A stretch of DNA of 64,000 bases from an uncultured Candidatus Saccharibacteria bacterium (GTDB lineage: Bacteria > Patescibacteriota > Minisyncoccia > UBA6257 > 2-01-FULL-56-20): the NCBI GenBank assembly GCA_964484655.1, contig CAZAFA010000002.1, forward strand, positions 123,860-187,859. Direction: 5' to 3'. The notes below the pieces were generated by a model. It did no database searches. It saw only the letters and a list, made by a program, of their open reading frames with translations, and was not told the DNA's origin. A program made the translations under genes and the position numbers. Below, in pieces: positions 8,163-64,000 of the stretch; position 1 is the stretch's first letter, and every line of letters starts with the position of its first letter.

Positions 8163-8707
8163 GCCTCGAGCACCGCCGGCAGCTTCGTGAACGAGGCCTC
8201 GAACAGTCGCATCATCTCCGGGCTGCGGAGCGCGGCCGCAGGATGGAGCATCGGGCAGACGAACCGTCCGCCGATGCGGAACACGGTCCCCTGGTCGCGC
8301 GTGATCTTCGCGTCCGGCAGGAAATGGTTCATCGAGAAGCGCCCGAGCGGCACGACGAGCACGGGCGCGATGATCGCGAGCTGCTCGGCGAGGAACGGCT
8401 GGTACGCGCGGATCTCCTCGGGCAGCGGATCGCGGTTGCCCGGCGGGCGGCGCTTCACGATGTTGGTGATGTACACGTCCTCGCGGCGCCAGCCGATCCG
8501 CTCCAGGTTCCTGTTCAGCAGCTGCCCGCCGCGCCCGACGAACGGGCGCACGAGCTCGTCCTCCTTCGCGCCGGGCGCCTCGCCCACGAACACGACGTCG
8601 GCGTCCGCGCTCCCCTCGCCGAAGACCAGGCTCGCCTCGAGCGGCAGGGTGGCGGCGGCCATGCGGCGATGCAGCGCGTCGAGGTCGGACTGCTTGCTCA
8701 TGACCAC
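8132..8707 (-). CDS. uracil-DNA glycosylase, family 4
   Basis: [10 protein letters not shown] (GEGPG-type motif A) and C-terminal HPAAALR motif B; 191 aa. Confidence 0.8.
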
Positions 8708-8756
8708 AGTGTACAGAAGGACGGGCCGAAGCCCGTCCTTTCTTCCTTGTCGGCGT

Positions 8757-9275
8757 TCACGCCTGGGCTGCCGCGAAGGCGACGCTGCCCTCGCGGACGA
8801 CGGAAGCGAGCAGCGCCTCCTGGTCCCGGACCTGGTCGTCGCGGACGACGCGCATGCGGAGCACTGCCTTGCGGAGCGCGCGCTCTTCCTCGCGCCCGAG
8901 CTCGCGACAGCGGTCCTCGAGCTTGGCGATGAAGTGCCGGCGTTCGGTTCCCGTCATCGTGTCCCAGAGGACGTAGATGGCGCGCACGGTCTGATCCGTG
9001 ATGCCGAGCACCGCGGCGATCTCCTCGCGCAGCAGGTCCTCGTCCGCGGACAGGAACCGGTACAGCACCGACGGGTCAGGGGCGCCGAGCGCCGCCGCGG
9101 TCGCGACCGCCAGCAAGCAGCCGTGCGCGCTGTCGGGGCGGCACCATTCCCGCGTGACCAGGGTGCCGGACCGGCGCGCCTCGAGGATCGCGCGGAAGAC
9201 GACGATGGTCGCTGCGCGCGAAAGCTGGAACTTCCTGACGTGCTTCATCAGATACTTCGACTTATGTGACATTGA
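8757..9275 (-). CDS. hypothetical protein (about 172 aa)
   Basis: AGGAGG, then ATG ([12 protein letters not shown]). The long N-terminal extension in the track ORF lacks an RBS. Confidence 0.45.
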
Positions 9276-9354
9276 GTCACCTCCTTTATTTGGTTTCGAG
9301 CAACACGAGCTTCTAAAGCTGCCCGTAGTAAACCGCTTCCGGGGCCGAAACTCA

Positions 9355-22227: not shown

Positions 22228-22900
22228 CCTCCGCCGCGCGATGCGCGCGGATATCGGCAACCAGCGCCGCCCAGGTCCCGTACCGGGCGGCGTTGCCGTA
22301 CTCCTTCCCGTGCACGCCGTGATCGAACACGTACTGCCGCCCCGCGTACCCTCTCGCGAGGAGTTCATCCATGAGCGCGGGCGCGTCGTCGACGATTCCC
22401 GTCACGTGCGGATGAAGGTTGCAGAGGACGTCCGCCTTCCAAGCGTGCATCGCGCGGTGCTCGCCGCCCGGGGGCCGCATGACCAGCGGCGCGGCGGGAA
22501 ATCCGTGCCGCCGGAGCCAGGAAGCGGTCGTGTCCGCGAGCGTCGCCGGACGCGCGGTGATATACGCCGCCAGGGGCACGGTCTCCGAGAGCTCGTTCAC
22601 CCCGGAGACGGCATCGGAGACAGGCTGGAACGTCTCGTGGAAGAGATCGTCATAGACGTATCCTAGGATGGCGGCATGGCCCTCGGGCGAATCCCAGTAC
22701 GGGACGGTGAAGACGTTCCGGTACCGCTCCAGGAGCTCGCGTCCGGTGAGCCCTTCCGGGTTGCTGTGACGCTCGGCCATGACCTCGAACCAGCGCAGGT
22801 CCGTCATGCAGAGCGTGTCGTCGATATCGAGCGCTATGCCGGAGCTGCCCGCAGCGGCGAGCCGCCTGCCGAGCTCGTCGGCCTCGAGCAGCTCGAACAT
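22217..22900 (-). CDS. HAD-superfamily hydrolase
   Basis: DIDDTL (HAD motif I, DxDxT). Start coupled to the dnaN stop. Confidence 0.55.
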   Translation of the reverse strand: MFELLEADELGRRLAAAGSSGIALDIDDTLCMTDLRWFEVMAERHSNPEGLTGRELLERYRNVFTVPYWDSPEGHAAILGYVYDDLFHETFQPVSDAVSGVNELSETVPLAAYITARPATLADTTASWLRRHGFPAAPLVMRPPGGEHRAMHAWKADVLCNLHPHVTGIVDDAPALMDELLARGYAGRQYVFDHGVHGKEYGNAARYGTWAALVADIRAHRAAEATG

Positions 22901-24006
22901 CAGGAGACGAGGGGCGCGAGCACGTAGCGGTACGTGCCCTCTCCCGCGCCGCGCAGGAGCGCCGGCTTGTCGGGATTTATGCCGAGCGTGACCCGCTCCG
23001 TAGGTACCGCGCGAAGGCCGTCCGCGAGCTGGCGCCAGTTGAAGGTCACGGACTGGAACGGTCCCGAGACTACCGCCGGAACGGTCGCCGTGTGCTCGCC
23101 GACCGCGTCGCTGCCGGCGGAGAGCGAGAGCTCCGCCTTGCTGCCTTCCCCCTCGGGGGCTAGGCGCACCTCGCTGCCCTTCGCGGCGAACACGCTGGCG
23201 AGCTTGAGCGCCGCCAGGAAAGCCTCGCGGTCCAGAGTGACCTCGGCGACGAAGCCCTTCGGGATGATCTGCTCGTAATCCGGGAAGTTCGCGGCGATCA
23301 GGCGCGTCACGACCTGCCAGCGGGAGGTCTCGAAGCTCGCCTGGTGCGCCTCGAAGTAGCAGGACACGTCCTCGTCGTCCCTGAGGACCCGTGAGAGCTC
23401 CGAAGCCACCTTCGCGGGGACGAGGGCCCGGACGGGATCTTCGGGCAGCACAGCGCCGTCTACGGCCGCCTCCGCGAGCCTGAAGGAGTCGGTCGCGACC
23501 AGCCGGAGGACGCCGCCCTCGGTGGAGAACAGGACCGAGGCCAGCTCGGGCGAGTAGTCGGCGGCGCCCTGCGCGGCGAAGGCGACTCTCCCGAGCGCCT
23601 CGCGCAGGAGCGCTCCGGGTACGGTCACCGCGGTGACGTCGGCGCCGCGCGTCGGGATAGCAGGGAAATCCTCGATCGAGGCGCCCGCGAGCGTCCCCTT
23701 GTAGTGATCGGTGGCTATGGCGAGGCTCGCGTCCTGAGCCTCGAGCGATACCCGCTCCCCCGTCAGCGCCGCCACCAGCTGCGCGAGCAGGGCGGAGGGG
23801 ACGGCGACCTTGCCGTGTCCCGAGACCTTCGCGGGAACCGACGCGCGGACCGCGAGCTCGAGGTTGGTGGCGGTGAGGACGAGCTGGTCCCCTTCGGTCT
23901 CGATGAGGACGTTGCGGAGCGCGGGGAGCTGGGCGCCCGAGCCGCTGGCGCGCTCCACCAGGGACAGCGCCGCGGAGAGCGTGTCACGGAGCGTCACGGC
24001 TTTCAT
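22900..24006 (-). CDS. dnaN: DNA polymerase III beta sliding clamp
   Basis: 368 aa, three-domain clamp pattern; immediately downstream of dnaA. Confidence 0.9.
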   Translation of the reverse strand: MKAVTLRDTLSAALSLVERASGSGAQLPALRNVLIETEGDQLVLTATNLELAVRASVPAKVSGHGKVAVPSALLAQLVAALTGERVSLEAQDASLAIATDHYKGTLAGASIEDFPAIPTRGADVTAVTVPGALLREALGRVAFAAQGAADYSPELASVLFSTEGGVLRLVATDSFRLAEAAVDGAVLPEDPVRALVPAKVASELSRVLRDDEDVSCYFEAHQASFETSRWQVVTRLIAANFPDYEQIIPKGFVAEVTLDREAFLAALKLASVFAAKGSEVRLAPEGEGSKAELSLSAGSDAVGEHTATVPAVVSGPFQSVTFNWRQLADGLRAVPTERVTLGINPDKPALLRGAGEGTYRYVLAPLVS

Positions 24007-24134
24007 GACGGTTACTATAACGTAGTAATAACTAGGAGTAGTAGGTGTAGGGCCTGGGGATTGTGGGGATAACCATGCCCTGCCGGGATTCCGCCCTTCA
24101 CCCGCAATTCATGCCGGATGCCCTGCCGCGTGGA
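24007..24134. promoter_or_regulatory. candidate oriC element (dnaA-dnaN intergenic)
   Basis: AT-rich stretch tactataacgtagtaataactagg followed by the DnaA-box-like TTGTGGGGATAA (reverse complement TTATCCCCACAA; one mismatch to TTATCCACA). A further TTTTCCACA box lies in the rpmH-dnaA intergenic region (about 25540). Confidence 0.35.
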
Positions 24135-25478
24135 TTACTTCTTGGAGAGCAGTTCGCGGACGCGGAATATCTTCTGGTTCAGGATGGCGTTCCGGTCGGC
24201 CTCGTGGTTGATCTTCTCGTAGGAATGGATCGCTGTCGTATGGTCCCTCCCCAGCTTTTCCCCGATGGTCGGGTACGAGAGGTCGAGCATGTCGCGCAGG
24301 AGGTACATCGCCACCTGCCGCGGCTCCACGACCTCCTTGCGCCGCGAGCGGCTGGCGAGGTCGCGCGGGCTGATGCCGTAGACCTCGGCCACGGCGGCGA
24401 GGACCTGGTCGTCGGTGACCGGCTTGGTGAGCGCGCGCATGGTCTTCTCGATGAGCTCGTCGGCGAGCGCCGCCGTGATCTCGTGGCCGCGCTTCTCCTG
24501 GTAGAACAGGAGCTTCGTGAGGATGCCTTCGAGCTCGCGGACGCTCTTCTTCATCTTCCGGGCGATGAGCTCGACGACGTCGTCGCCGAGGTGCGCCTTC
24601 CGTTCGTCGAGCTTGTTGCGGATGATCGCGACCCGCGTCTCGAAGTCGTACGCGGTGATGTCGGCGATCAGGCCCGCCTCGAAGCGGCTCCGGAGGCGCT
24701 CCTCGAGCGTCGGGATGGCCTGGGGCGGCCGGTCCGAGGAGATGATGATCTGCTTGCTCTGCTCGTGGAGCGCGTTGAAGGTGTGGAAGAACTCCTCCTC
24801 GGTGGAGTTCTTGCCGCCGATGAACTGGATGTCGTCGATGATGAGGACGTCGGTCTCGCGGTACTTCTTCTTGAGGTCCTCGGTGCGCTTGTTGCGGATG
24901 GCCCAGATGACGTCGTTGGTGAACTTCTCGCTGGTGACGTACTGCGTCCGGATGTTCGGCCGGCTCTTGCGGAGCTCGTTGCCGATTGCCTGGATCAGGT
25001 GCGTCTTGCCGAGTCCGACGCCGCCGTAGATGAAGAACGGGTTGTACTTCGTGCCGACCTCCTCGACGATCGCCGCCGCGGCAGCGGCCGCGAACTCGTT
25101 GGACTGGCCGACGACGAAGGAATCGAGCGTGTAGCGCGGGTTGAGGCCGGTTGCCGCGTCTATGCGGACCTCGAGCGGCACGGCCGCGGGCGCGGCAGGC
25201 GCGCGCGCCGGCTTCTTCGGCATGACGGCAACGCTGCTGCTGATGACCACCTCGATCCGCTTCACGGTCGGGTTGAAGGTCCGCACGATGCCGAGGATGT
25301 CCTTCTGGTACTTCTCCTCGACCCAGCTCTTGGCGAACGCGTTGTCCACGGCGACGCCCAGCGCGTCCCCGGACACGTGCGAGACCGACGTGCTCTTCAG
25401 CCACATGGAGAAGTTGGTGCGGGAGATGCGCTTTTCCATCTCCTTGAGTACCGCATTCCAGAGCTCCTGGTGTTCCAT
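24135..25478 (-). CDS. dnaA: chromosomal replication initiator DnaA
   Basis: Walker [11 protein letters not shown], Walker [11 protein letters not shown]-terminal DnaA-box binding HTH ([18 protein letters not shown]). Confidence 0.95.
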
Positions 25479-25625
25479 GTGAGGCGTGTTGATCAGAAGA
25501 GGAGGTCTCGTTGCGGAGGTATTGTACGGGCTGAAGGTCCCGCGTCAAAGTTTTCCACAGACCAGGAAACAGAACCCGCGAGCTGTCCATTTACATCCGG
25601 AAACCCCTCCTGTATGCTCGGCCCC

Positions 25626-25760
25626 ATGTCAGTGACCTACCAGCCCAAGAAGCGCAAGCGCGCCCGCACCCACGGGTTCCTTACGCGCAGCAGCACGCCG
25701 GGGGGTCGCCGCGTGCTCCAGCGCCGCCGGCGCAAGGGACGCGCCAAGCTCTCCGTCTAG
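25626..25760 (+). CDS. rpmH: 50S ribosomal protein L34
   Basis: [21 protein letters not shown]...; 44 aa. Confidence 0.9.
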
Positions 25761-25778
25761 GAGGGCTTTTTCGCCGTC

Positions 25779-26105
25779 ATGATACCGCGCGCCCTCCGAG
25801 CGGACGTTCCTGCCGTGCTCGCGGCGAATCCGCGGCCGCTGCGCCTCCCGTGGGCGAGCGTGCGCGTGCTCGGTACCGAAGGGGAGGGAGGCATCGCGGT
25901 CGTGGTTCCCAAGAAAGCCGCGCGCCTGGCGGTCGATCGCCACAGGGCGAAGCGCCGCGTGGCGGCGGCGCTCTTGGCTTCGCGGAAGCCAGGATATATG
26001 GTCGTGGTGACGCTCATGCCGCCCGGCACGCGCGTCCGCGGACCCCGTCTGCGGGCGTGGTGCGACGAGCTGTGGGCCCGTATACTCGACTCCACGCATG
26101 CTTGA
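25779..26105 (+). CDS. rnpA: RNase P protein component
   Basis: 108 aa, basic, VVPKKAARLAVDRHRAKRR (RNR motif region); canonical position after rpmH. Confidence 0.75.
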   Translation: MIPRALRADVPAVLAANPRPLRLPWASVRVLGTEGEGGIAVVVPKKAARLAVDRHRAKRRVAAALLASRKPGYMVVVTLMPPGTRVRGPRLRAWCDELWARILDSTHA

Positions 26106-26808
26106 GATCTATCACGCCGTCATCGCGGCGCCCCTCCTGAATATCCTCATCGGCCTCTACCAGACCGTGGCGTTCCGCGACCTGGGCCTCGCTATCGCCG
26201 CGCTCACCATCCTCATCCGTCTCGCGTTCTACCCGCTCTTCCAGCGCGGCCTCGAGCAGCAGGCGAAGATGCAGAAGCTGCAGCCGAAGATCAAGGAGAT
26301 CCAGGCCAAGCACAAGGGCAACCATCAGGCGCACTCCCAAGCGCTCATGGCCTTGTATAAGGAGCATGACTTCAACCCGTTCTCGGGCATCCTGATGATG
26401 CTCGTGCAGATCCCGATCCTCATCGCGCTCTACCATCTCTTCCTCGGCATCTTCAGCGCCGACGCGCTCACGCGGCTCTATTCCTTCATCCCGAGCCCGG
26501 GAAGCCTCGATTCCGTCTCCCTCGGACTGATCGATCTCGCGCATCCCTATCTCCCGCTCGTCCTCGTCACCGCGGTCCTGCAGTTCTTCCAGACCAAGCT
26601 CGCGCTCAGCGGGGCGAGGGTCACGGACAAGGCGCAGAGGGTCACCGGCCAGGTCATGTCGCTCGTGGCGCCGCTCATAACGCTCGTCATCTTCTGGAAG
26701 CTACCTGCGGCGGTTTCCGTGTACTGGTTCGTGACCACCGTATTCTCGCTGTTCCAGCAGTACGTCGCGAACAAGAAGATAGAACGGAGCGATGTCGCGG
26801 CCGCTTGA
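26098..26808 (+). CDS. yidC: membrane protein insertase YidC (short Gram-positive/CPR-type)
   Basis: Five TM helices, conserved PLFQRG...KMQKLQP...LYKEH...NP motifs; 236 aa. Confidence 0.85.
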   Translation: MLEIYHAVIAAPLLNILIGLYQTVAFRDLGLAIAALTILIRLAFYPLFQRGLEQQAKMQKLQPKIKEIQAKHKGNHQAHSQALMALYKEHDFNPFSGILMMLVQIPILIALYHLFLGIFSADALTRLYSFIPSPGSLDSVSLGLIDLAHPYLPLVLVTAVLQFFQTKLALSGARVTDKAQRVTGQVMSLVAPLITLVIFWKLPAAVSVYWFVTTVFSLFQQYVANKKIERSDVAAA

Positions 26809-27223
26809 GGAATTCGTCCGCGAGCTGGTAGCGCGGCTCGGCTTCCCCGAGGCCGGCGTCACGGCTGACGCGGAGACCCGCAAGGGCGAGGTGACCGTGC
26901 TCATCGAGCTCGAGGGACGCGATTTGCAGGAGGCGGTCGAGGCGCTCAACCACCTCGCGGCGCGCTACGCCGAGAAGATCGAGCTCCCCTCGGTGTTCTT
27001 CGATATCAACGGCTATCGCGCGGAACGCGAGCAGCTGATCCTCAAGCTCGCGGAGGCGGCGGCAGAGAAGGTCCGGCGCTCAGGCGGCGTCGTGGAGCTG
27101 CCGAGCATGAACTCGTACGAGCGCCGGCTCGTGCACGGCTTCATCGGCGACCAGGAAGGCGTCGAGAGCGAGAGCGCCGGCCTCGGCAAGGAGCGGCGCG
27201 TGACGATCCGGAAAGGCTCCTAG
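26792..27223 (+). CDS. Jag/KhpB-like R3H RNA-binding protein
   Basis: C-terminal R3H: YERRLVHGFIGDQEGVESESAGLGKERRVTIRK. Confidence 0.75.
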   Translation: MSRPLEEFVRELVARLGFPEAGVTADAETRKGEVTVLIELEGRDLQEAVEALNHLAARYAEKIELPSVFFDINGYRAEREQLILKLAEAAAEKVRRSGGVVELPSMNSYERRLVHGFIGDQEGVESESAGLGKERRVTIRKGS

Positions 27224-35113: not shown

Positions 35114-37465
35114 TTATTTTCCCTTCTCTTTACCCTTCGCTTTTTCCGCCCGGCTCTCACGGCGTGCTTTGCTAAGCTGTTCCATCTTGGCTGTATCAAT
35201 ACGACCAGTGAAATTCACATTATTTTTAAGTGTCTTATACATTGACGTGATGCGAGTCTTAGCATCCTTTATTGAGATACGGTTTGTTTTCTGCTCTGAA
35301 GTGAGATTGACATTGGAATCTTCGTTGTAGAAGAAATCACCAAAAAGGCCAATTTCTTTCTTCTTTTCTTCGGAAAGGGCTTCGAACTTCTGTATTTTCT
35401 GTCGAGCTCTTTCGATTACTTCCGTAATTCGCTCAATTTGTTCGATATTCATATCACCAATTTGCTTGAGCTGAGAATTATTGAGAGCTGTTGTACGTAG
35501 AACGACGCCCTGTCGGGTTTCCAATCCTTCATCCTTTTGATAGTCGAATAGCGAATCATCGAGTGCAAGAGTTGATATATCGTCCCCTTTCACCGAAGGA
35601 ATTTGTGCTGCGACTGCTTCCTGAGTCGTCATTGTACGACTCTTGTCTTTCGTCTTGCCGCGCGGGGCGAGGGCTGCAAGTTGCGGAGCCGAGGGAAGGA
35701 TTTCCTTCAGTACCCCGGAATCCTGGGCCCGCTTAAGTTGACGCTCGAGATCTTTCTTATAAGCTTCTTCGACTTTCTTATATTGCTCACTAGATTGCAG
35801 TCTTTTCTTCTCTTCCTTCACCGCCTTCTTGAGATCCTTACCTTTTAGGCCATCAGCCTTCGCTTTCTTCTCGTAGTCAGCTAGTGCTTTCTCGACTTCC
35901 GGGCTCGCAGATGTCGCGAGGCCGCCGAGCGCCTTCTTCTCCTTGAGGAGCTTGAAGATGGCCGCCTCGCGGTCGGGGTTCGCGGCGAGCTGGCCGGAAG
36001 CCAGCCGGCGCCGCTCCGCGAGCAACGCGCTGGTAGTGAGGTTCTTGAGGCTGTCCTGCTCGTCCTGCACGCGCTGCTCGACCGACTTCTTGTTCGCGAC
36101 GCCGGCGTCCGCCATGTAGCGTCCTACCGTACCCGCGCCTGCCATGCGCGCGATCCTGCTGTTAGAGGAGAGCGTGGAGAGCCTGCTGCCCATGCGCTGC
36201 AAGCGCGAGTTCCCATCCTTGTCCTTGCCCGACGTGCGCACGCGATCGAGCGTCCGCATGCCTGCCGCCGACGCTCTTCGCTTGACAGAGTTACCTACGG
36301 AAGCGAACGCAGCCTTGCCGGAGTCCATGAACTTGATGCCGAGCTTCGAGGAGAAGTACAGGCCGCCGTAGAGCGTCCCGGAGATGAGGATGAAATTGAG
36401 GCTGCTCGTGATGATCGGCTTCGCCGCCGCGCCGAAGGTCTTGAAGAGGAACCCGCTGATGCCGCCGCCAGCGGTATCGGCGCTGCCGAGACCCGTCAGC
36501 TGGGCGTCGTCGAGGACGTGGGCGCCATTGATGAAGGCCGCGGTCTTCATGCTCAGGTAGAGGAAGAACATCGCCATGGGGGCGAAGAAGGTCCACTTCA
36601 CGAACTTGTCCGACCAGTAGCTCACGAGGCCCCTGCCGAAGGGGAATATCCAGGCGAGCCATACCGCGGGCATGATGATGAGCAGGAGCGAGAGCGTCAC
36701 GTAGCGCGCGGCGAATGCGGCGAGCATGATGCCGAAGAAGATCACGAGCAGGATGCTCATGATGACGGTCATGTAGATGCCGGCGATCGCCGCGAACATG
36801 CCTGCGGTGTCGGCAGCGAACTTGCTCGTCGCGTCCGAGAAGATAGTCTCCTCCTTCACCTCGGTGCTGAATCCGGCGTTCAGGAAGGCCTTCTGGGGAT
36901 TGAAGGCTCCCGCGAGGTTGTCCGCGAATTCGAGGATGCCCACCCCGATATCCGCCGTGGGATTGGGGACGGAATTGTTGATGAAGAATTCCGTAAGCCT
37001 GTCCGAGAAGTTGATGGCGGTGCCTGCCAGGATGAGGCTGAAGTTCACGCCAATGGCGGCGATCACGATCTTCCAGAGCAGCTGCTTCGCGCCGTAGGTG
37101 TCGTACCGGATGATCGTCGCGACCGCCATGATGATCACCGCGGCGACGAAGGCAATGTTCGCGAAGGCGAGGACAATCGAGAATCCGAACTGGACCGAGG
37201 TTGAATTGACGAGGTCGAAGTTGAGCTTGAGGAGGAACTGGAAGAAGAAGACCTCGATGATCGTGATGATGTTCAGGAGGATGCCTATGAGGTAGGCGAT
37301 GTAGTAGGCAACCTTCTGGACGAGCGAGAAGGCGACATCGGATATGCCCGTGAGTTCGCCGACCCAGCCCAGGATGCCCGCGTGCGCTTCTTGAGGAACC
37401 AGAAAGGCAGCGCCTGCGAGGACCGCAGCCAGGACGAGAGAGACGGGTTTGATGCGCTTATTCAT
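35114..37465 (-). CDS. VirB6/TrbL-like polytopic membrane protein with long K/E-rich coiled-coil C-terminal domain
   Basis: About 8-9 TM helices in the N-terminal 420 aa. The C-terminal 360 aa are Lys/Glu-rich heptad-like; this AT-rich DNA is at 35150-35900. Confidence 0.65.
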   Translation of the reverse strand: MNKRIKPVSLVLAAVLAGAAFLVPQEAHAGILGWVGELTGISDVAFSLVQKVAYYIAYLIGILLNIITIIEVFFFQFLLKLNFDLVNSTSVQFGFSIVLAFANIAFVAAVIIMAVATIIRYDTYGAKQLLWKIVIAAIGVNFSLILAGTAINFSDRLTEFFINNSVPNPTADIGVGILEFADNLAGAFNPQKAFLNAGFSTEVKEETIFSDATSKFAADTAGMFAAIAGIYMTVIMSILLVIFFGIMLAAFAARYVTLSLLLIIMPAVWLAWIFPFGRGLVSYWSDKFVKWTFFAPMAMFFLYLSMKTAAFINGAHVLDDAQLTGLGSADTAGGGISGFLFKTFGAAAKPIITSSLNFILISGTLYGGLYFSSKLGIKFMDSGKAAFASVGNSVKRRASAAGMRTLDRVRTSGKDKDGNSRLQRMGSRLSTLSSNSRIARMAGAGTVGRYMADAGVANKKSVEQRVQDEQDSLKNLTTSALLAERRRLASGQLAANPDREAAIFKLLKEKKALGGLATSASPEVEKALADYEKKAKADGLKGKDLKKAVKEEKKRLQSSEQYKKVEEAYKKDLERQLKRAQDSGVLKEILPSAPQLAALAPRGKTKDKSRTMTTQEAVAAQIPSVKGDDISTLALDDSLFDYQKDEGLETRQGVVLRTTALNNSQLKQIGDMNIEQIERITEVIERARQKIQKFEALSEEKKKEIGLFGDFFYNEDSNVNLTSEQKTNRISIKDAKTRITSMYKTLKNNVNFTGRIDTAKMEQLSKARRESRAEKAKGKEKGK

Positions 37466-42423: not shown

Positions 42424-43026
42424 GTGCTGACCCAGCCTAGCACTCCGGTCCCGATACGCCTAGCAAAACGGGCCCTCGCAGGAATCATCATCGTTTCCAG
42501 CGCCGCCGTGGCATCCGCCACGCTGAACAAGGGACTCCAGTTCGCCTATCAGGTGGACGTCAACACGTCGCTTTCTCGCGCGGTGGCCGCCGCAGCTCCT
42601 GCGAAGGCGCATGCCGCGGAGATAGAGAAGGAAAAGGAGCAGGAGAAGAAAAAGGAGGAGGCGAAGAAGAAGGCCGCAGCAGGACCATATTTTATCGTTC
42701 CTGCCAAGGGCATCGACTGGGGCATCATCCACTCGAACAACGGCGTCGATATCGCCAACAGCTGCGGTACCGCGATCAAGGCCGCCGCTGCGGGAACCGT
42801 CATTGAGGTCAGCGGCGGCTGGAATGGCGGCTACGGCAACGCCGTAGGAATCCGGCATGGAAACGGGACCGTCACCTACTACGCGCACCTGCAAACCATC
42901 GCTGTCGAATCTGGCGAGAAAGTCTCACAGGGAGAGAAGATCGGCACCATGGGCCAGACCGGGCAATCGACGGGATGCCACCTCCATTTCGAGGTTCATG
43001 GCGGCAGGAACCCATTCGGCAAATAG
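42424..43026 (+). CDS. M23-family (LytM) metallopeptidase
   Basis: HxxxD and HLH motifs (GIRHGNG...YAHLQ...GCHLHFEV); N-terminal anchor; K/E-rich linker. Confidence 0.8.
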   Translation: MLTQPSTPVPIRLAKRALAGIIIVSSAAVASATLNKGLQFAYQVDVNTSLSRAVAAAAPAKAHAAEIEKEKEQEKKKEEAKKKAAAGPYFIVPAKGIDWGIIHSNNGVDIANSCGTAIKAAAAGTVIEVSGGWNGGYGNAVGIRHGNGTVTYYAHLQTIAVESGEKVSQGEKIGTMGQTGQSTGCHLHFEVHGGRNPFGK

Positions 43027-43054
43027 GTAATAATCCGGCTATACGTCGCAAAAT

Positions 43055-43299
43055 CCTGACAAACATATTTGTCAGGATTTTTCGTAGATGTTTAGCGATA
43101 AACATCTAAAGTGCGAAAAATGTTTAGCGACAAACATTTTTTGCTCGATTTCAGACAATTTTGTTTAGCGACAAACATTTTTCCGCTGACAAACATGTTT
43201 GTCAGACAAAAATTTGTTTAGCGACAAACATTTTCTTGAAAAATACGCATAGGAATGTTTAGCGACAAACATTTTTCCTCTGACAAACATGTTTGTCAG
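43055..43299. repeat. AT-rich array of eight palindromic sites: five B-type and three A-type
   Basis: B-type: ATGTTTAGCGA[C/T]AAACAT, five direct copies at about 43087, 43119, 43161, 43213 and 43254. A-type: CTGACAAACAT[G/A]TTTGTCAG, two perfect 20-bp palindromes at about 43186 and 43280, plus the variant CCTGACAAACATATTTGTCAGG at 43055. Confidence 0.85.
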
Positions 43300-43426
43300 A
43301 TGTCGCAAAATATCAATCTGTATTCTCTTTATTCCGGAATGGCGCATCCGGATTGCCTCGGTTCGAAAGTGAAGGCAATAATAGGTGCGTACTAAAACCA
43401 AATAGGTACAACTCAATAACAATCTA

Positions 43427-44806
43427 ATGCTTAACATCAAAGACATCGGCAAGGCTCTCAAGCAGATCGCTGAGGAGAAGGGCCTTCCCCAGGAGAAGGT
43501 GCTCGAGGCTATCGAGTACGCCATCGCGACCGCTTATAAGCGCGAGTACGCGACCAAGAACGAGATCGTGAAGTCGACGCTCAACCTCGACACCGGCGCC
43601 CTCGAGTTCTGGAAGGAGAAGACCGTCGTGGACGAGACCCTCGTCCGTTTCGTCACGCCGGAGGAGGAGGCGGCCGAGGAGGAGGCTCGGCAGCAGATGC
43701 TCCAGCAGGGGCTCCGCCCGCCGCATCCCGACCAGGAGGTCGGCGAGGACGGCGAGCCCAAGCTCCCGCGCTTCAACCCGGAGCGGCATCTTCTGCTCGA
43801 CGAGGCGCGCGCCATCAAGAAGGATGCGCAGATCGGCGAGGTGCTCACCTTCCCGCTCGAGGTTCACGAGGACTTCGGCCGCATCGCGGCGCAGGCTGCC
43901 AAACAGGTGGTCATGCAGCGCCTCCGCGAGTCGGAGCGCTCGCTCATCCTCGACGAGTGGCGCGGCAAGGAGGGTCAGATCGTCAGCGGCATCGTCCAGC
44001 GCTACGAGCGCGGGCACGTGTACGTCGACTTCGGCCGCGCGACCGGCGTGATGTTCTACAACGAGTCGATCCCGAGCGAGCATTACCGCTCGGGGGACCG
44101 CCTGCGCTTCTACGTGCTCGCGGTGCAGGAGGACACGCGCATGCCGGGCATCATCCTGTCGCGCTCGCATCCGATGTTCGTGCAGAAGCTGTTCGACCTC
44201 GAGGTTCCTGAGCTTTCAGAGGGAGCGGTCGAGATCAAGGGCATCGCGCGCGAGGCGGGGAGCCGCACGAAGGTTGCGGTGCAGTCCCATGCGCCGGGCG
44301 TCGATCCGATCGGCTCGTTCGTCGGGCAGCGCGGCACGCGCGTCATGGCGGTGACCAACGAGCTCGGCCAGGAGAAGATCGACATCATCGAGTGGTCCGA
44401 CGAGCCGGAGGTGTTCATAGCGCACGCGCTCAGCCCTGCGCGCGTGAACGCGGTCGAGACGTACGACCGCCGCGAGGCGCGCGTCTTCGTCCCGGACGAC
44501 CAGCTGTCGCTCGCGATCGGCAAGGGAGGCCAGAACGTCCGCCTGGCCGCGAAGCTCACCGGCTGGAAGATCGACGTCCGCTCCAGCGCCGATCCTGAAG
44601 CGACCCAGGAAGGCGGCGTCGCCACGAGCGAGGGCGAGACGTTCGCCGAGGAGACGGCGCGCGAGATCGAGGACAGCCTCGAGCAGGTCGCCGAGGAGGT
44701 GGCCGTCGCGCCGGATGCGGGGGATACCCCCGAGGAGATGGCCGAGGATCGCGCCGGCGAGCCGGTCGACCTGACCGAGGAGGATTCAGTCACTACGTCA
44801 TCCTGA
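43427..44806 (+). CDS. nusA: transcription termination/antitermination factor NusA
   Basis: N-terminal domain, S1 and two KH domains, acidic C-terminal tail; 459 aa. Confidence 0.9.
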   Translation: MLNIKDIGKALKQIAEEKGLPQEKVLEAIEYAIATAYKREYATKNEIVKSTLNLDTGALEFWKEKTVVDETLVRFVTPEEEAAEEEARQQMLQQGLRPPHPDQEVGEDGEPKLPRFNPERHLLLDEARAIKKDAQIGEVLTFPLEVHEDFGRIAAQAAKQVVMQRLRESERSLILDEWRGKEGQIVSGIVQRYERGHVYVDFGRATGVMFYNESIPSEHYRSGDRLRFYVLAVQEDTRMPGIILSRSHPMFVQKLFDLEVPELSEGAVEIKGIAREAGSRTKVAVQSHAPGVDPIGSFVGQRGTRVMAVTNELGQEKIDIIEWSDEPEVFIAHALSPARVNAVETYDRREARVFVPDDQLSLAIGKGGQNVRLAAKLTGWKIDVRSSADPEATQEGGVATSEGETFAEETAREIEDSLEQVAEEVAVAPDAGDTPEEMAEDRAGEPVDLTEEDSVTTSS

Positions 44807-46412: not shown

Positions 46413-47623
46413 CAGGCCGTGAATGTCGCGAACCGGTGCTTGCCGACCTTCACCGTGATTGAGCCGGAAACCGGCGTTCCGGGATCGCCGATCTTCGCTC
46501 CGCTGCCCAGGTCGGTGACCGCTCCTTGGTCGAAGAGGCGCCTGCCGTCGGTCTTGGAATCGACGAGCGCGTGCATGACGAGCGCGTCGAGGAGCGCCGT
46601 CCCGGCGGGAACCGGGTATGACGGGATATCCGTCGGGATGCCACGCTCGCTGAAGGCTGCGATCCAGGATTCCTTCGCATGCTCCGCTGCCGCATCGTCG
46701 TGATACATGCGGACGATCTCCGTAGCGAGCTCGAGCTTGAGGTCCTTCGGGTTCGCGCCCTCGTCGAGTCGGCGCTTGATCGCCTCGACCTCGGCGACCG
46801 GCAGGCGCGTGCAGTCCAGGAAGACCTGCACGATGCCCTCGTCGGGAAGCGCCATGACCTTGCCGAACATGTCGGCAGGGGATTCGCCGAGTCCGACGCC
46901 CGTTCCCTTGCTCTTGCTCATGAGCGCCTCGCCGGTCGCGGGATTCTCCAGCAGCGTGGTCGCGAGGACGAACTTCTCGCGGTCCTGGTATCGCTTCACG
47001 AGCGTCCGGCCGGCCAGCATGTTGAAGGTCTGGTCGGTTCCGCCGATCTCCAGGTCCACCTCGAGCGCCACAGAGTCGTATCCTTGCATGAGCGGGTACA
47101 TGAATTCATGGACGTACAGCGGCTTCCGCTCTTTCAGCCGGCGCTCGAAGAGGTCGCGCTCGATCATGTGCTGGACCGTGAAGTTCGAGGCCAGGTCGAG
47201 CAGTTCCTCGAAGCCGAGCTTCGAGAGCCACTCGCTGTTGAAGCGGAACTCGATGGGGTTCTCCTGGTCGTCGAAGGGGAGTACCTTGCCGATCTGCTGC
47301 TTGAACGTCGCGAGGTTCTCCTGGACCTGCTCCTTGGTCAGGCGCGTGCGGACCGCGCCCTTGTCCGGGTCGCCGATCATGGCCGTGAAGTCGCCGACGA
47401 GCACGATGATGCGGTGACCGAGCTTGTGGAGCCGCTCGAGGAGGAGATAGTTCGTGGAGTGCCCCAGGTGGACGTAGGTGGAGGTCGGGTCGATGCCGAC
47501 GTAGGCCGTCAGGCGGCGTCCCGTGAGGAGCTCGGTCCTGAGCGCGTCGGCGCCCGGATAGACTGCTGCCACGGAGCGGGTGAGCAGCTCGTCGATCAGG
47601 GCGGGGTCGGTGACGGTCTTCAT
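46412..47623 (-). CDS. tyrS: tyrosyl-tRNA synthetase
   Basis: YVGIDPTSTYVHLGH (HIGH-type), KMSKS as EALMSKSKG; start at MKTVTD. Confidence 0.9.
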   Translation of the reverse strand: MKTVTDPALIDELLTRSVAAVYPGADALRTELLTGRRLTAYVGIDPTSTYVHLGHSTNYLLLERLHKLGHRIIVLVGDFTAMIGDPDKGAVRTRLTKEQVQENLATFKQQIGKVLPFDDQENPIEFRFNSEWLSKLGFEELLDLASNFTVQHMIERDLFERRLKERKPLYVHEFMYPLMQGYDSVALEVDLEIGGTDQTFNMLAGRTLVKRYQDREKFVLATTLLENPATGEALMSKSKGTGVGLGESPADMFGKVMALPDEGIVQVFLDCTRLPVAEVEAIKRRLDEGANPKDLKLELATEIVRMYHDDAAAEHAKESWIAAFSERGIPTDIPSYPVPAGTALLDALVMHALVDSKTDGRRLFDQGAVTDLGSGAKIGDPGTPVSGSITVKVGKHRFATFTA

Positions 47624-47670: not shown

Positions 47671-47733
47671 GGAATGTTTAGCGCCAAACATTCCTGACAA
47701 ACATGTTTGTCGCCCGGATTTGCTCGATTTCTG
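47671..47733. promoter_or_regulatory. second copy of the B+A palindrome module plus the shared 12-mer TTGCTCGATTTC
   Basis: GGAATGTTTAGCGCCAAACATTCC immediately followed by CTGACAAACATGTTTGTCG and TTTGCTCGATTTC; same arrangement as at 43119-43152 and 43254-43299. Confidence 0.8.
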
Positions 47734-47805
47734 AGCGGGTAAGGGGAGTCGAACCCCTGCCTTCTCCTTGGAAGGGAGACGCACTACCGCTATGCAATAC
47801 CCGCG
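47734..47805 (-). tRNA. tRNA-Gly (anticodon TCC)
   Basis: Folded by hand: acceptor GCGGGTA/TACCCGC, anticodon stem-loop TCTCC-CTTCCAA-GGAGA, T-arm GGGGT-TCGACTC-CCCCT. Confidence 0.8.
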
Positions 47806-47897: not shown

Positions 47898-47971
47898 GGC
47901 ACCCATAGCTCAACGGTTAGAGCAGTCGTCTTATACACGACCGGTTCCTGGTTCGAGTCCAGGTGGGTGCA
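47898..47971 (+). tRNA. tRNA with anticodon TAT (Ile-UAU type)
   Basis: Acceptor GCACCCA/TGGGTGC, D-arm GCTC-AACGGTTA-GAGC, anticodon arm GTCGT-CTTATAC-ACGAC, T-arm CCTGG-TTCGAGT-CCAGG, discriminator A; CCA not encoded. Confidence 0.7.
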
Positions 47972-47974
47972 CAG

Positions 47975-48751
47975 CTAGGCGGCCTCGGAGGCCTCCCAGA
48001 TGAACATGAACCAGCTGCGGAGCATGCCCGCGAGCATCTCGTTCTCGACGAGTATCCCGAAGAGCTGGCGGTCCTTCAGCGCGTAGAAGGCGACCTGGTC
48101 GTCCCAGATCATGAGGTTGGACCAGAGGCGGATCGTCCCCTCAGGCTTCACCCGGATCTCGCGCAGGTACGTCGCGTCGTCGTTGAACTCGGCGCCCGGC
48201 AGCCGCTTCGGGCCGGGACGCAGCGCGAGGAGCCGCGTACCGAACTTCCTGCGGTACGCGTGATACTCGCGGAGGAAGGGCGTGCCGATCGACTTGTGTA
48301 TGTCGTACTCGGACCCTGCCACGAGCACTTCCTTAGAGCCGGCGTTCACGCTTCGCCAGAGCATCTTCTTGATGTTCTCCGCGCCGTCGAAGTACGAGAC
48401 GCGCGAGAAAGGGGAGGGTCCCGCGTCCAGCGCGGCGAACGCAGGGAGCAGCTCCTCGAGATCCTTCTCGAGCGAGCGCGTGGCTTCCACGCGCTCGCGT
48501 ATCAGAGCCTTGAGCTCGCCGGGCGGGTTCGCCTTGATGCGTCGCCCGTAGGCGGCGCCGACCTGATGGACGAAGCCCTTCTCCTCGAGCTTGCGGACGA
48601 CGTCGTACGCGTTCGTGCGGGTGAGGCCGAGCCTCTTCGCGAGCTGGCTCACGGCCACGGGCCCGGCCTTAAGGCAGAAGAGGTAGGTCTCCGATTCTCG
48701 TCCGGAGAGTCCCATGCGATCGAGGAAGGCAGCGAGGCCGCGGGCTGACAT
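47975..48751 (-). CDS. TrmB-family-like transcriptional regulator (N-terminal wHTH + C-terminal domain)
   Basis: Start at MSARGL; HTH region VAVSQLAKRLGLTRTNAYDVVRKLEEKGFV. Confidence 0.55.
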   Translation of the reverse strand: MSARGLAAFLDRMGLSGRESETYLFCLKAGPVAVSQLAKRLGLTRTNAYDVVRKLEEKGFVHQVGAAYGRRIKANPPGELKALIRERVEATRSLEKDLEELLPAFAALDAGPSPFSRVSYFDGAENIKKMLWRSVNAGSKEVLVAGSEYDIHKSIGTPFLREYHAYRRKFGTRLLALRPGPKRLPGAEFNDDATYLREIRVKPEGTIRLWSNLMIWDDQVAFYALKDRQLFGILVENEMLAGMLRSWFMFIWEASEAA

Positions 48752-48830
48752 GTTGTCGAAATTATATCGACACATATACGGATAGGAAGGAGTGCGGTTA
48801 CCTGTCCGCAGTCATGGAGGACAACCAAAT

Positions 48831-61359: not shown

Positions 61360-64000
61360 ATGCCAAACCCCGATCAGATCCCCCCGGTAGATCCTCAGGA
61401 GAAGAACGAACTTCCTGCTTCTGAGCCGACGCCGGCGCCCGAGCTCATCCGCATCACTGACGACGAGCCCGTCATAGAGAGCGAGGCGCAGCGGCAGGCA
61501 CGACTCAGCGAGCTGCGCTCAGAACTCAAGGGCGGCTTGGGCGACGAGGAGATCGACAGTATGGTCGAGGGCATCGGGGCCCAGAAGGAGGGCCCGGTCC
61601 GCGACATAGCGGCGATCGAATCCGACCTCCGCCGCGCGAGCGAGGAGTCGCAACGGATCCTCCAGGAGCAGGGGAAGGAGGCTTTCGAAAAGTACGTCGC
61701 CGCGAACGAGCATCTCATCGACGAGTACAAGGCCGCCGGCGGCCAGCGTCAGAACGCGCAGATCGACATGGGCGAGCGGGTCGGATACAAGGGCGCGGAG
61801 CAGCCGACTCAGGAGCCGCAGAAGGGCGAGGTCGTCAGCGACCAGGATCTGGAGAAGGCCGTCCGGAAGGAGATGGGAAGCGAGGCCGGCCTTCTGCCGC
61901 ACGAGCAGGCGGAGATCGTCCATCGCGCGGCCGACGAGATCATCGAGAACGTCGGCGACGTCCTGGCGTTCATCCAGGATCCGAAGGCCGTGCAGCGGTT
62001 CGGCAACCTCATGGCAGGCAAGATGGATCTCCCGACCGGCGCCATCGGGATGAAGGAACTCGACGAGGTGCTCTATAACAGCCTTCAGGAAGTGAAGCAG
62101 CGCCTTCCGGAAGTCCGCCGCCAGCTTCTGGCAGAACCGGCGATTGGGACTGTGGAGCGGGATCTCAGGGACAGCAAGCTCCAGCAGCTCGCCAATCTCG
62201 AGCAGATCATCGACGCCAAGAGCGCTGCCGCCGCGAAGCCGCTGGATCTCGAGGGAATCAGTGAGCAGGAATTGAATAAGGCCTTCCCTGGAGATGCGAA
62301 GGATGCGATGCCGGACGCGACGCCCCCGACCCATCTGAATGAGAAGGGCGAATGGGATGCCCAGGGCTCTGCTCGCGCGGGTGCGCCGGAGAGCGCGAGC
62401 TCGGAGGAGCAGGCCCTCCAATCAGCGATCGAGCGCCTGGATGCCGAGGCATCCGAGCAACATGCGAGGTATCTTGAGCTGAAGGACGCCGGCGACCTCG
62501 ACGGCGCTGAAGCTGCCAAGAATCGGGCGATAGAGCTGCTGAACCAGAAATACGGCGAGGAGGATCGCCTCAAGGAGCTCAGGGACAAGGAAGCTACGGC
62601 TCCCGGCAGCGCTCCGCTCCCAGGTGAGCCCGAGCTGGTGCGCATCACCGACGAGGACGAGCCGATGGAGGACGGCTCGTGGAAGATGCCCGCGCCTAGG
62701 TTCGTGTCGACGCCGGGAGAGAATCCGGCCGACAAGGCGAAGGAAAGCGCCCCACAGGCCGACGCGCTCCCGGATAAGTTCGAGGAAGAGGCTCCGCAAG
62801 CCATTACGGATTACGCAGAATGGGCGAAGGGTGAGATCTCCGTGCGCGACGGCGGCGATTATCTCAACCAGCTCCAGGAGCAGATGTTCCGCGAGACGGA
62901 CGAGGATAAGAAGCTCGATCTCGCGCAGAAGATCAGCGCCGGCGAGGCTCGGTTGAACGAGCTGCGTGCTGAAGCGCAGGCCATCGCGAACAACGCCGCG
63001 ACGCCGGAGACGACGCCGGCAGGAGAGCCGCCGGTCGAGCCTCTGGAAGCTGCCGCGGCCGAGCAGGCGCCAGAGCTCAAGACGCTCCGCAACGCGAAGG
63101 TCGACGCTGCCGATCGCCTGACCGCCTGGTTCCGCGGGCAGGACAAGGAATCCGAGTTCCGCGGGAAGTTCGGCAACCTGAAGCAGAAGCTCTACAGCGG
63201 CATCAACGCGCTCACGAAGTCGGAGTGGCAGGGCCGCCCCGCGAACCAGGCGCAAGCCGTGGTCAAGGAGCTTGTCGCGAAGATGATCGAGGACCCGACG
63301 CTCGACCCGAAGGCCGCGCTCGCGGAGAAGCTCGCCGAGAACCCCAAGGGCATCGAGAACATCGATCCGGAATCGGAATCGGCCCGCATCATCCTGGACG
63401 CCGTCCGCGCGGAGCACGCGTACAAGGCGCAGCGCGCCGAGCTCGTCTCAGAGTTCCGCGCAGGGTATCCGGCCGGCATCGACGCGTACAATAAGGCGCA
63501 TCGCGAGGAGGACCTCTTCAAGAAGTTCGTACTCGCCGAGCTCGACCGCGAGCAGGATTACCGCGAGCAGAAGCTCGAAGCGGAGCGCAGCAAGGCAGGG
63601 AAGCTCGCGCGGAAGGCCGCGGGCGTCATGGGCCGTGCCTACAAGGGGACGTTCGGCAAGCTCACGCCTGCCCAGCGCATCGCCGTCGGCGTGGTCGTCG
63701 GTTCCGCGATCGGTATCGCCCTCACCGGTGGCGTCGCGGGAGCTGGCGCGATCATCGGATACCGCGCGTTCCGCGGTGCCGGATCGTACCTGACCGCCAA
63801 GGGTTCGGCTTCCATCTACGAGAAGGTTGCCGGCTTCTTCCACGGCACGAAGGACAGCCGCGAGATGGCGGCGGACGCAGCGAAGGACCTTGAGAAGGCC
63901 GAGGACAAGCTCGAGCTCTTCCAGGCTATCGAGAAGGCTACCGCCGAGGCCGCGCGTGCGCGGAGCGTCGAGGCGAAGATAAACCGCCGGAAGGGCATCG
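61360..64000 (+). CDS. very large coiled-coil protein, E/K/A/D-rich, with C-terminal TM region (partial: runs off the window end; more than 880 codons)
   Basis: Manual translation from ATG at about 61360 (MPNPDQIPPVDPQEKNELPASEPTPAPELIRITDDEPVIE...) stays open to the window edge. The composition is consistently protein-like. A hydrophobic stretch IAVGVVVGSAIGIALTGGVAGAGAIIGYRAF lies near 63660-63760. It is not in the ORF track, which lists only stop-delimited ORFs; the track ORFs over this span are all antisense. Confidence 0.6.
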   Translation, partial: MPNPDQIPPVDPQEKNELPASEPTPAPELIRITDDEPVIESEAQRQARLSELRSELKGGLGDEEIDSMVEGIGAQKEGPVRDIAAIESDLRRASEESQRILQEQGKEAFEKYVAANEHLIDEYKAAGGQRQNAQIDMGERVGYKGAEQPTQEPQKGEVVSDQDLEKAVRKEMGSEAGLLPHEQAEIVHRAADEIIENVGDVLAFIQDPKAVQRFGNLMAGKMDLPTGAIGMKELDEVLYNSLQEVKQRLPEVRRQLLAEPAIGTVERDLRDSKLQQLANLEQIIDAKSAAAAKPLDLEGISEQELNKAFPGDAKDAMPDATPPTHLNEKGEWDAQGSARAGAPESASSEEQALQSAIERLDAEASEQHARYLELKDAGDLDGAEAAKNRAIELLNQKYGEEDRLKELRDKEATAPGSAPLPGEPELVRITDEDEPMEDGSWKMPAPRFVSTPGENPADKAKESAPQADALPDKFEEEAPQAITDYAEWAKGEISVRDGGDYLNQLQEQMFRETDEDKKLDLAQKISAGEARLNELRAEAQAIANNAATPETTPAGEPPVEPLEAAAAEQAPELKTLRNAKVDAADRLTAWFRGQDKESEFRGKFGNLKQKLYSGINALTKSEWQGRPANQAQAVVKELVAKMIEDPTLDPKAALAEKLAENPKGIENIDPESESARIILDAVRAEHAYKAQRAELVSEFRAGYPAGIDAYNKAHREEDLFKKFVLAELDREQDYREQKLEAERSKAGKLARKAAGVMGRAYKGTFGKLTPAQRIAVGVVVGSAIGIALTGGVAGAGAIIGYRAFRGAGSYLTAKGSASIYEKVAGFFHGTKDSREMAADAAKDLEKAEDKLELFQAIEKATAEAARARSVEAKINRRKGI

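Follow-up and report, generated by a model that had tools for sequence, protein, structure and literature searches.

A conserved, helically phased array of parS-class sites upstream of nusA in a Parcubacteria-type bacterium

Results

The spacer between an M23 peptidase gene and nusA contains a dense array of two classes of sites

We analyzed a 64-kb stretch of DNA (positions 123,860 to 187,859 of contig CAZAFA010000002.1, assembly GCA_964484655.1; hereafter, the window) in which a 400-bp spacer between a gene for a Peptidase_M23 protein and nusA contains an array of short palindromic sites. The spacer is unusually AT-rich, with a guanine-plus-cytosine (GC) content of 0.357 vs a window mean of 0.655, and based on Pfam, the neighbors of the array include genes for UvrD, KsgA, M23, NusA, PPase, and ClpP. 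The array comprises eight sites at 43056-43299, five of class B and three of class A, that have one 8-bp half-site, TGTTTRNC, in common. A B site (core TGTTTAGCGAYAAACA) consists of two inward-facing half-sites, which together make up a 16-bp palindrome centered on CG; in an A site (CTGACAAACAT[G/A]TTTGTCAG), the half-sites are everted. All five B sites have the same orientation. The features of the spacer and its flanks are as follows.

42424-43026, gene for Peptidase_M23 (Pfam), left flank of the spacer
43045..43054, + strand, F1, left copy of the bracketing direct repeat GTCGCAAAAT, inside TATACGTCGCAAAAT (repeat search, family D5)
43056..43075, A1, everted half-site pair CTGACAAACATATTTGTCAG with one central mismatch, inside a longer palindrome (43047-43084) that is followed by TTTTT
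43089..43104, + strand, B1, 16-bp site of the parS class, TGTTTAGCGATAAACA (motif search)
43121..43136, + strand, B2, TGTTTAGCGACAAACA, start 32 bp past the B1 start
43162..43177, + strand, B3, TGTTTAGCGACAAACA, start 41 bp past the B2 start
43186..43205, A2, CTGACAAACATGTTTGTCAG, perfect 20-bp palindrome of everted half-sites (motif search)
43215..43230, + strand, B4, TGTTTAGCGACAAACA, start 53 bp past the B3 start
43256..43271, + strand, B5, TGTTTAGCGACAAACA, start 41 bp past the B4 start
43280..43299, A3, CTGACAAACATGTTTGTCAG, perfect 20-bp palindrome, right boundary of the array (motif search)
43302..43311, + strand, F2, right copy of the bracketing direct repeat GTCGCAAAAT, invariant in a five-lineage alignment
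43427-44806, gene for NusA (Pfam), right flank of the spacer

A preliminary description of this DNA had recognized the AT richness of the spacer and all eight sites with their shared half-site, including the two A sites that are perfect 20-bp palindromes (43186-43205 and 43280-43299). The ATGTTT start that it gave for the B site holds for three of the five copies, B3 and B4 reading TTGTTT, and it overlooked both the bracketing repeat GTCGCAAAAT at 43045-43054 and 43302-43311 and a further B+A pair at 47675-47713.

The five B sites of the array, which all conform to the 17-mer TGTTTAGCGAYAAACAT, are packed within 183 bp with 16-37 nt between sites. We found 8 matches to the B 17-mer vs 0.01 expected from shuffled sequence, 4 matches to the A 20-mer vs 0.00, and 11 occurrences of the 9-mer common to the sites (GACAAACAT) vs 0.11. 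The array is real and far above chance level. A generic scan of the 64 kb for TGTTT-N6-AAACA returned no sites besides those in the array and the one close to tyrS, and after extension of the window by ~10 kb leftward via a Logan contig (L248) and by ~2.5 kb rightward (L250), B and A sites were present at only two loci in 74 kb.

The array is conserved in close relatives and recurs in more distant lineages

NusA homologues were labelled, e.g., Candidatus Paceibacterota, Liptonbacteria, and Minisyncoccia, which places the window among the Parcubacteria-type Patescibacteria of the candidate phyla radiation (CPR). Using NusA, we fetched five relatives (NusA 82-90% identical; locus GC 50-66%), and all five have kept the array. 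They share the gene order M23, AT-rich spacer, nusA as well as the layout F - A - [B]n - A - F, in which 5-7 B sites and 2-3 A sites are separated by nonconserved sequence. The motif GTCGCAAAAT is present at both array ends in all five lineages, and its reverse complement, ATTTTGCGAC, adjoins arrays in more distant Parcubacteria. The half-sites themselves differ by lineage, e.g., L007 has the perfect palindrome TGTTTAGCGCTAAACA, and L004 has TGTTTATCGGTAAACA together with the A form TGATAAACATGTTTATCA. Conservation in every relative examined answers the concern, voiced in the preliminary description, that the region might be an unconserved low-complexity insertion.

Scanning metagenome contigs for pairs of B-class sites at a distance of 8-38 bp, we identified at least 120 loci with a GC content of 21-64%; all counts given for this wider set are among the loci listed. 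At array loci that hold nusA, NusA is 48-85% identical to that of the window. The 509 clustered sites have the consensus TGTTT-R-N-C-G-N-Y-AAACA (TGTTTRNCGNYAAACA), in which the central G is 85% conserved even though the search pattern did not require G, and they are flanked by A-rich sequence on the 5' side and T-rich sequence on the 3' side. Most lineages have an A-like everted element, TGAYAAACA-N4-5-TGTTTRTCA, ahead of the first B site, and its two halves are directly joined in the window lineage.

The dominant genetic context in the wider set is comM <- dksA/TraR-like <- array -> yraN (UPF0102) -> nusA, and the second is S20 <- yraN <- array -> various genes. In total, yraN adjoins the array in at least 42 loci. 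The 64-kb window has no yraN, comM, or dksA-like gene and has nevertheless kept the array, supporting that the function of the array is independent of those genes. In 11 of 42 loci, a B site is also present within the yraN coding sequence. That this intragenic site uses TTT and AAA codons even where the genome has 60% GC suggests that selection acts on the DNA itself. It is located at ~nt 250-275 of yraN, where it encodes the conserved peptide xF[VS][AG]KH, in loci L128, L143, L145, L167, L169, L195, L211, L234, L239, and L241.

In related Parcubacteria (L128-L247), a further repeat family, consisting of two copies of AATCCGGCAA followed by two inverted copies of TTGCCGGATT, separates the dksA-like gene from the A-like element (e.g., L195 8300-8460, L163 2260-2340, and L183 2410-2470). 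Degenerate copies of it are kept in the window (AATCCGGCTA at 43032).

No arrays were found in the viral contigs searched. A scan of a 596-Gb genome collection with the 16-mer GAYAAACATGTTTRTC, which is too short a pattern for a collection of this size, returned isolated chance matches in unrelated taxa and no clusters among the at least 120 matches listed. The B and A site sequences were not found in the literature searched. The array is, thus, undescribed in that literature and conserved across many related lineages.

Short palindromic repeats parted by nonconserved spacers could also be expected of a selfish or adaptive repeat array, i.e., repetitive extragenic palindromic or bacterial interspersed mosaic elements (REP/BIME), miniature inverted-repeat transposable elements (MITE), or a guide array resembling clustered regularly interspaced short palindromic repeats (CRISPR) or tandem interspaced guide RNA (TIGR) arrays, and TIGR arrays have been reported in CPR bacteria (PMC12045711). 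The restriction of the sites to two loci in 74 kb and the syntenic position kept over deep divergence speak against any such element, and there were no matches in viral contigs. A TIGR or CRISPR array was rejected as a candidate based on the variable spacer lengths (16-37 nt), the lack of a dual-repeat or box C/D pattern, and the lack of cas or tas (Nop-domain) genes among the Pfam-scanned neighbors (TIGR features as described in PMC12045711). We consider it extremely improbable that the array belongs to one of these repeat families.

Pairing and phasing of the half-sites point to recognition of duplex DNA by a protein

Among sites in the wider set, 114 of 295 were perfect palindromes vs 145 expected from random pairing of the half-sites of each locus. 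Palindromes are, therefore, not in excess, arguing that there is no selection for self-complementarity. The flanks of the B sites are mostly noncomplementary, and the arms of the B sites in the window pair at five of eight positions. Because half-sites pair independently and the flanks are noncomplementary, these data support recognition of TGTTTRNC by a protein on duplex DNA rather than formation of a hairpin, and a reading of the B sites as hairpins with covariation was ruled out on the same grounds. Half-sites are identical with a probability of 0.47 within a locus vs 0.21 globally. Such lineage-specific half-site variants are the pattern that a coevolving binding protein would give.

The start-to-start spacings of the B sites in the window (32, 41, 53, and 41 bp) are multiples of ~10.4 bp. 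Spacings in the window lineage are helically phased (Rayleigh R = 0.72 at 10.3 bp, n = 33), and across all loci, they fall on a ladder of 21, 32, 42, 52, 63, 73, 83, 104, 115, and 125 bp together with an off-phase class at 36-37 bp; these spacing counts are not phylogenetically independent, and the spacer sequences themselves have turned over. The B sites are on one face of the helix. Independent pairing of half-sites, the lack of an excess of perfect palindromes, and helical phasing all support the suggestion in the preliminary description of a dense set of sites for a dimeric DNA-binding protein, and such a multisite platform is the best reading of the spacer. The cis element is sharply defined by its clear consensus TGTTTRNCGNYAAACA, deep conservation, lineage-specific half-site variants, and strict helical phasing, and it offers a direct handle on its binding protein.

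The A1 site, which is predicted to fold with -20.9 kcal/mol (z = -5.5) and is followed by UUUUU, is the only site in the array with the characteristics of an intrinsic terminator. Its counterpart in L002 has the same arrangement, i.e., a strong hairpin (~-21 kcal/mol) and a U-run, and based on these predictions, both very probably terminate transcription of the M23 gene. Because of these two hairpins, and because autoregulation of NusA via terminators is known in other bacteria, we considered that the array could function as an RNA-level or single-stranded DNA structure, i.e., as terminators, nusA attenuators, or a small RNA. The remaining sites do not share the properties of A1: the A2 and A3 hairpins are weak (A2, -8.7 kcal/mol) and have no U-run, and the B sites are without U-runs or sufficient stability. 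Searches of the region against Rfam gave nothing at gathering or permissive thresholds and only subthreshold microRNA and small RNA hairpin models. Moreover, a conserved predicted promoter is located downstream of the array, and the sequence is conserved and not the pairing alone, which adds to the lack of excess palindromes, the incomplete pairing of the B arms, and the usually noncomplementary flanks. A function as RNA structure is, thus, very unlikely, and together with that as a selfish repeat, we regard it as effectively excluded.

The array is located upstream of a predicted nusA promoter, and a satellite pair is located upstream of tyrS

Between the array and tyrS, we identified the following features.

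43331-43340, ATTCCGGAAT palindrome, between F2 and the nusA -35
43353..43382, + strand, predicted nusA promoter with -35 TTGCCT (43353), an 18-nt spacer, and -10 AATAAT (43377-43382) (promoter scan)
43388..43426, + strand, nusA leader CGTACTAAAACCAAATAGGTACAACTCAATAACAATCTA, nearly invariant (five-lineage alignment)
47621-47623, - strand, start ATG of tyrS
47675..47690, B6, satellite B site TGTTTAGCGCCAAACA, 52 nt upstream of the tyrS start codon
47694..47713, A4, satellite A site CTGACAAACATGTTTGTCGC with the perfect core GACAAACATGTTTGTC, just 3' of tRNA-Gly
47733-47804, - strand, tRNA-Gly

The predicted nusA promoter is of the sigma-70 type and has an invariant -10 and a -35 of TTGCC or TTGCG in the five-lineage alignment. 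The array ends ~55 bp upstream of this -35. Thus, with a conserved promoter predicted downstream of it, the array is located upstream of the promoter and not over it.

Two further observations concern the region between the array and nusA. First, the nusA 5' leader (CGTACTAAAACCAAATAGGTACAACTCAATAACAA...) is nearly unchanged in the window, L002, L004, L005, and L007 despite the GC range of 50-66%; it is far more conserved than the remaining spacer, has no Rfam match, and may be a translational or autoregulatory element. Second, the palindrome ATTCCGGAAT, with which the array was said to end in the preliminary description, is present at 43331-43340 and not conserved in relatives. Each lineage has a different short GC-rich palindrome between the right GTCGCAAAAT repeat and the nusA -35 (ATTCCGGAAT in the window; AGAATCCGGAAGGATTCT and CGCTCCGCACTGCGGAGCG in others, with those of L004 and L007 at ~1184-1201 and ~2278-2296, respectively), so that the structure appears to be kept and the sequence not.

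The satellite pair B6/A4 is located 52-90 nt upstream of tyrS and 4.4 kb from the main array. L004 has an equivalent A+B pair between tRNA-Gly and tyrS; the pair is absent in L002, where tyrS is rearranged. A tRNA-Ile with the anticodon TAT (UAU), which represents an uncommon bacterial route to reading AUA codons, is located nearby at 47899-47972.

The proximity of sites to gene starts raises the question of whether the array is an operator for a lineage-specific transcription factor other than ParB, which would control yraN and the dksA-like gene/comM in most Parcubacteria, and nusA and tyrS here. Such a factor would be a dimeric repressor or activator with cooperative binding to the B sites and perhaps also to the A sites. 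Most lineages have their final B site within 0-25 nt of the yraN start codon, where it overlaps -35-like hexamers; the tyrS-proximal pair and the position of the array upstream of the conserved predicted nusA promoter fit the same pattern of intergenic sites close to gene starts, although intragenic sites also exist, and neither site number nor position relative to promoters is conserved. Helical phasing is typical of cooperative transcription factor binding, and the central AGCGCT is also found in operators of the LacI/CcpA type, but 5-11 sites are unusually many for one divergent promoter. While the failure to find ParB nearby (74 kb searched) would also agree with a different type of regulator, no transcription factor gene is consistently adjacent to the array. 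Finally, the array outlasted the loss of yraN, comM, and dksA in the window lineage and travels with yraN into unrelated neighborhoods. On balance, we regard such an operator array as less probable than the reading preferred below and as its main, serious competitor. A narrower proposal, an operator dedicated to nusA, does not accommodate that most related lineages have yraN and comM adjoining the array instead, nor that the array in the window is upstream of the conserved predicted nusA promoter without covering it. If the sites do represent a regulator array, they would establish one of the earliest regulons known from Parcubacteria, connecting the transformation genes yraN and comM with nusA and tyrS.

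Three candidates for the binding protein or site type were considered and rejected. YraN was attractive because it is encoded next to the array in at least 42 loci, with its gene sometimes containing a site; it is absent from the 64-kb window. YraN is reportedly a single-stranded DNA endonuclease partner of ComM in transformation (bioRxiv 10.1101/2024.02.06.579203), and it is unlikely to be the array binder. A TrmB-like regulator encoded close to tyrS (47975-48775) has no homologue in the array loci listed. A CRP-S-like reading of TCGCAAAA was discarded, since only a half-site is present.

The array is origin-proximal and not located at the GC skew switch

A typical set of origin-region genes is clustered in the window as follows.

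22900-27223 (22.9-27.2 kb), dnaN (- strand), dnaA (- strand), rpmH, rnpA, yidC, and jag (Pfam)

The array is located 17.5 kb from dnaA-dnaN, and in other lineages, arrays are 4-11 kb from dnaN or dnaA. The GC skew stays above zero along the entire window (+0.058 left of the array, +0.056 right of it), and the close relative L002 likewise has a positive skew on both sides of its array. In the joined 73.8 kb, the cumulative GC skew reaches its lowest value at window position ~778, which is ~43 kb left of the array; the left arm of this profile is only 10 kb, and the origin position is, therefore, approximate. The array is, thus, origin-proximal and not at the skew switch. The spacers of the dnaA region are short and contain only two near-canonical DnaA boxes (24064, minus strand; 25551, plus strand), and there is no GC skew switch in this region.

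These observations bear on the possibility that the array is a replication origin or an iteron-like accessory module, with the sites binding a replication regulator next to DnaA boxes and with DNA unwinding in the AT-rich spacer. Like DnaA-box clusters in oriC and plasmid iterons, the array is an AT-rich island with multiple phased sites. Moreover, gene orientation in the window diverges at 42.4 kb, and the dnaA flanks hold just the two near-canonical boxes. Array-bearing spacers of related lineages contain 36 DnaA boxes vs 10.5 +/- 3.3 in shuffles. In one clade, a conserved DnaA-box pair, TGTGGATAA-N23-TGTGGACAA, and tandem TGTTTACACA repeats are located beside the array, and L169 has three canonical DnaA boxes by its array. 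Based on such boxes, the array may adjoin oriC in some clades. The module of the former clade (TGTGGATAA-CTATGGGTATAACTAGGNCTTTN-TGTGGACAA-GTGTCCAAG, followed by ATTTTGCGAC and two to three tandem TGTTTACACA; L133, L190, L217, L219, L222, L171, and L132) looks like an oriC core to judge from its sequence.

In the window, by contrast with those relatives, there is no DnaA box with 0-1 mismatch at 42950-43450, even though the DnaA encoded in the window keeps the canonical base-contact residues. Together with the skew, this argues against an origin at 43 kb here. Also, the half-site is TGTTT and not the TGTGG of the DnaA box, and unlike iterons, which are 17-22-bp direct repeats, the sites are palindromic and at variable multiples of the helical turn. 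Using Pfam, we found no rep gene among the neighbors. The iteron-type origin that was offered as an option in the preliminary description did not withstand these comparisons in this genome, and we regard an origin or origin accessory function of the array as improbable, though conceivable for the class of elements. The B site itself was rejected as a DnaA box (TTAGCGACA, two mismatches), as the conserved arms are outside the 9-mer, L007 has GCTA in its place, and relatives have canonical boxes in addition to B sites.

The B sites belong to the parS class

The arms of the B consensus, TGTTT...AAACA, are identical to those of the universal chromosomal parS TGTTTCACGTGAAACA. Chromosomal parS has the sequence TGTTNCACGTGAAACA and shares with the B sites its 16-bp palindromic form, the central CG, and a dnaA-proximal location (PMC7022226). 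Bsr parS, the sites of secondary chromosomes and plasmids in Burkholderiales, are 16-bp palindromes with a T-rich 5' end and a 6-bp core that consists of two C, two G, one A, and one T with a central CG (PMC5450999). The B site, as the consensus TGTTTRNCGNYAAACA and as TGTTTAGCGAYAAACA in the window, matches this class definition exactly, including an AGCGCT core, and Bsr parS also resemble the B sites in having variants specific to a replicon or lineage (PMC5450999). Natural asymmetric parS that are identically repeated are known (PMC5450999), and the equivalent here is TGTTTAGC/GACAAACA. The related arrays include parS variants with two mismatches as well as canonical parS half-sites, e.g., TGTTTGCCGTGAAACA.

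In four loci (L205, L208, L209, and L245), of which three are evidently non-CPR, sites of the same class immediately precede par genes. In L205, parB is preceded by three copies of TGTTTAACGTTAAACA, and the other three loci have two copies of TGTTTGTCGATAAACA between rsmG and parA-parB.

The organization of the array also has counterparts among chromosomal and plasmid centromeres. As in chromosomal ParB-parS systems, a main cluster is accompanied by a satellite a few kilobases off, and sites may be intragenic. The sopC centromere of the F plasmid has tandem 16-bp inverted repeats with a spacing of ~4 helical turns, each of which binds a dimer of a ParB family protein, and the clustering at regular spacing (five B sites in 183 bp) is similar to this multicopy architecture. 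In P1 parS, the heptamer ATTTCAC occurs in several orientations and is contacted by freely rotating helix-turn-helix modules, which provides a precedent for inverted and everted half-sites in one centromere. Both are plasmid elements with adjacent sopAB or parAB, unlike the array; sopC repeats are exact 43-bp units, and P1 parS requires IHF and a second (box B) motif. The inner TTTAGC of the B site, which is the commonest B half-site, is the half-site of the operator TTTAGCGGCTAAA (PMC11790492) for KorB of plasmid RK2. The ParB family protein KorB serves in partition and repression, a dual role that is also proposed here, but the OB operator is 13 bp with an extra central base, and its 12 copies are dispersed on the plasmid and not phased (PMC11790492, PMC5577506).

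A candidate chromosomal centromere or organizing center

Based on these likenesses, our preferred reading, which is tentative and to which we attach somewhat less than even probability, is that the parS-class sites make up a phased, multicopy, high-occupancy platform to which a dimeric ParB/KorB-type protein would bind, and that the array functions as a chromosomal centromere or organizing center, possibly with an effect on the nusA and tyrS promoters. Each B site would bind one dimer of a ParB/KorB-type helix-turn-helix protein, and the five B sites on one face of the helix, together with the satellite pair 4.4 kb off, would nucleate a higher-order nucleoprotein complex in the dnaA-proximal part of the chromosome. 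This complex would be a centromere or organizing center with a plasmid-like multicopy architecture. The A sites, whose everted half-sites bracket the array, could be bound in another geometry, e.g., by bridging, or could be boundaries. Occupancy of the array (about -70 to -300) may also modulate the nusA promoter, and that of the satellite pair, the tyrS promoter region.

Several observations weigh against a centromere of this kind. Over its 16 positions, the B site in the window has four mismatches to canonical parS, where the usual range is 0-3, and TGTTNCACGTGAAACA with up to three mismatches is absent from the window; the differences are at positions 6-7 and 10-11. In many bacteria, parAB adjoins jag or gidAB; the genes that come after jag in the window are for type IV secretion. 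Using Pfam on the called window genes and the flanking extensions, as well as tblastn and phmmer on six-frame open reading frames (ORFs) of the window and the CPR loci, we found no ParB or ParA in the 74 kb of the genome searched, and none was detected in ~350 kb from 55 CPR array loci. A partition operon beside the array was not found among the neighbors listed above, which separates the array, located on the main chromosome of a CPR bacterium, from Bsr parS, which are beside their own parAB on secondary replicons. Arrays hold 5-11 phased copies in 250-600 bp together with everted A sites; dense clustering and strict phasing of this kind are atypical of chromosomal parS and are seen in plasmid centromeres and in transcription factor or origin arrays, and the everted A sites would not be bound by a dimer of fixed geometry. 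Finally, the last B site close to the yraN start in most lineages and B6 52 nt upstream of tyrS are in repressor-like positions.

A further possibility is that the array represents a previously undescribed organizing element of Parcubacteria-type CPR bacteria, consisting of a phased parS-class array with everted half-site bookends and having a binder other than a conventional ParB encoded nearby. Such an element, which we regard as unlikely, might be a nucleoprotein hub of a new type in the origin region, tying the control of segregation or replication to the uptake and recombination of DNA in bacteria with few regulators. In many lineages, it is physically coupled to yraN and comM, two recombination genes of natural transformation, and in some clades, to origin DnaA boxes. 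Its binder could be a highly diverged clamp of the ParB family or have a different fold.

If the array does function as a centromere, a plasmid-style multicopy parS architecture would serve a main chromosome, and the known range of specificities of ParB family proteins would be widened. A large part of bacterial diversity belongs to the CPR/Patescibacteria, and the organization, segregation, and regulation of their tiny chromosomes are barely understood. Independently of function, the motif can be used as a marker of a conserved chromosomal landmark in fragmented metagenome-assembled genomes.

Other features of the window

A segment with a low GC content (~0.42-0.45) at 35139-35879 corresponds to the 3' part of a gene for a 783-aa protein without Pfam match, which is located inside a type IV secretion-like gene cluster (27.2-39.8 kb). 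At the right end, an ORF of 1,312 aa without Pfam match runs past the window (61360-64000, continued in L250 at 5411-9349). The strand opposite this ORF contains long Arg/Leu-rich shadow ORFs, which are mistaken for genes by simple ORF calling.

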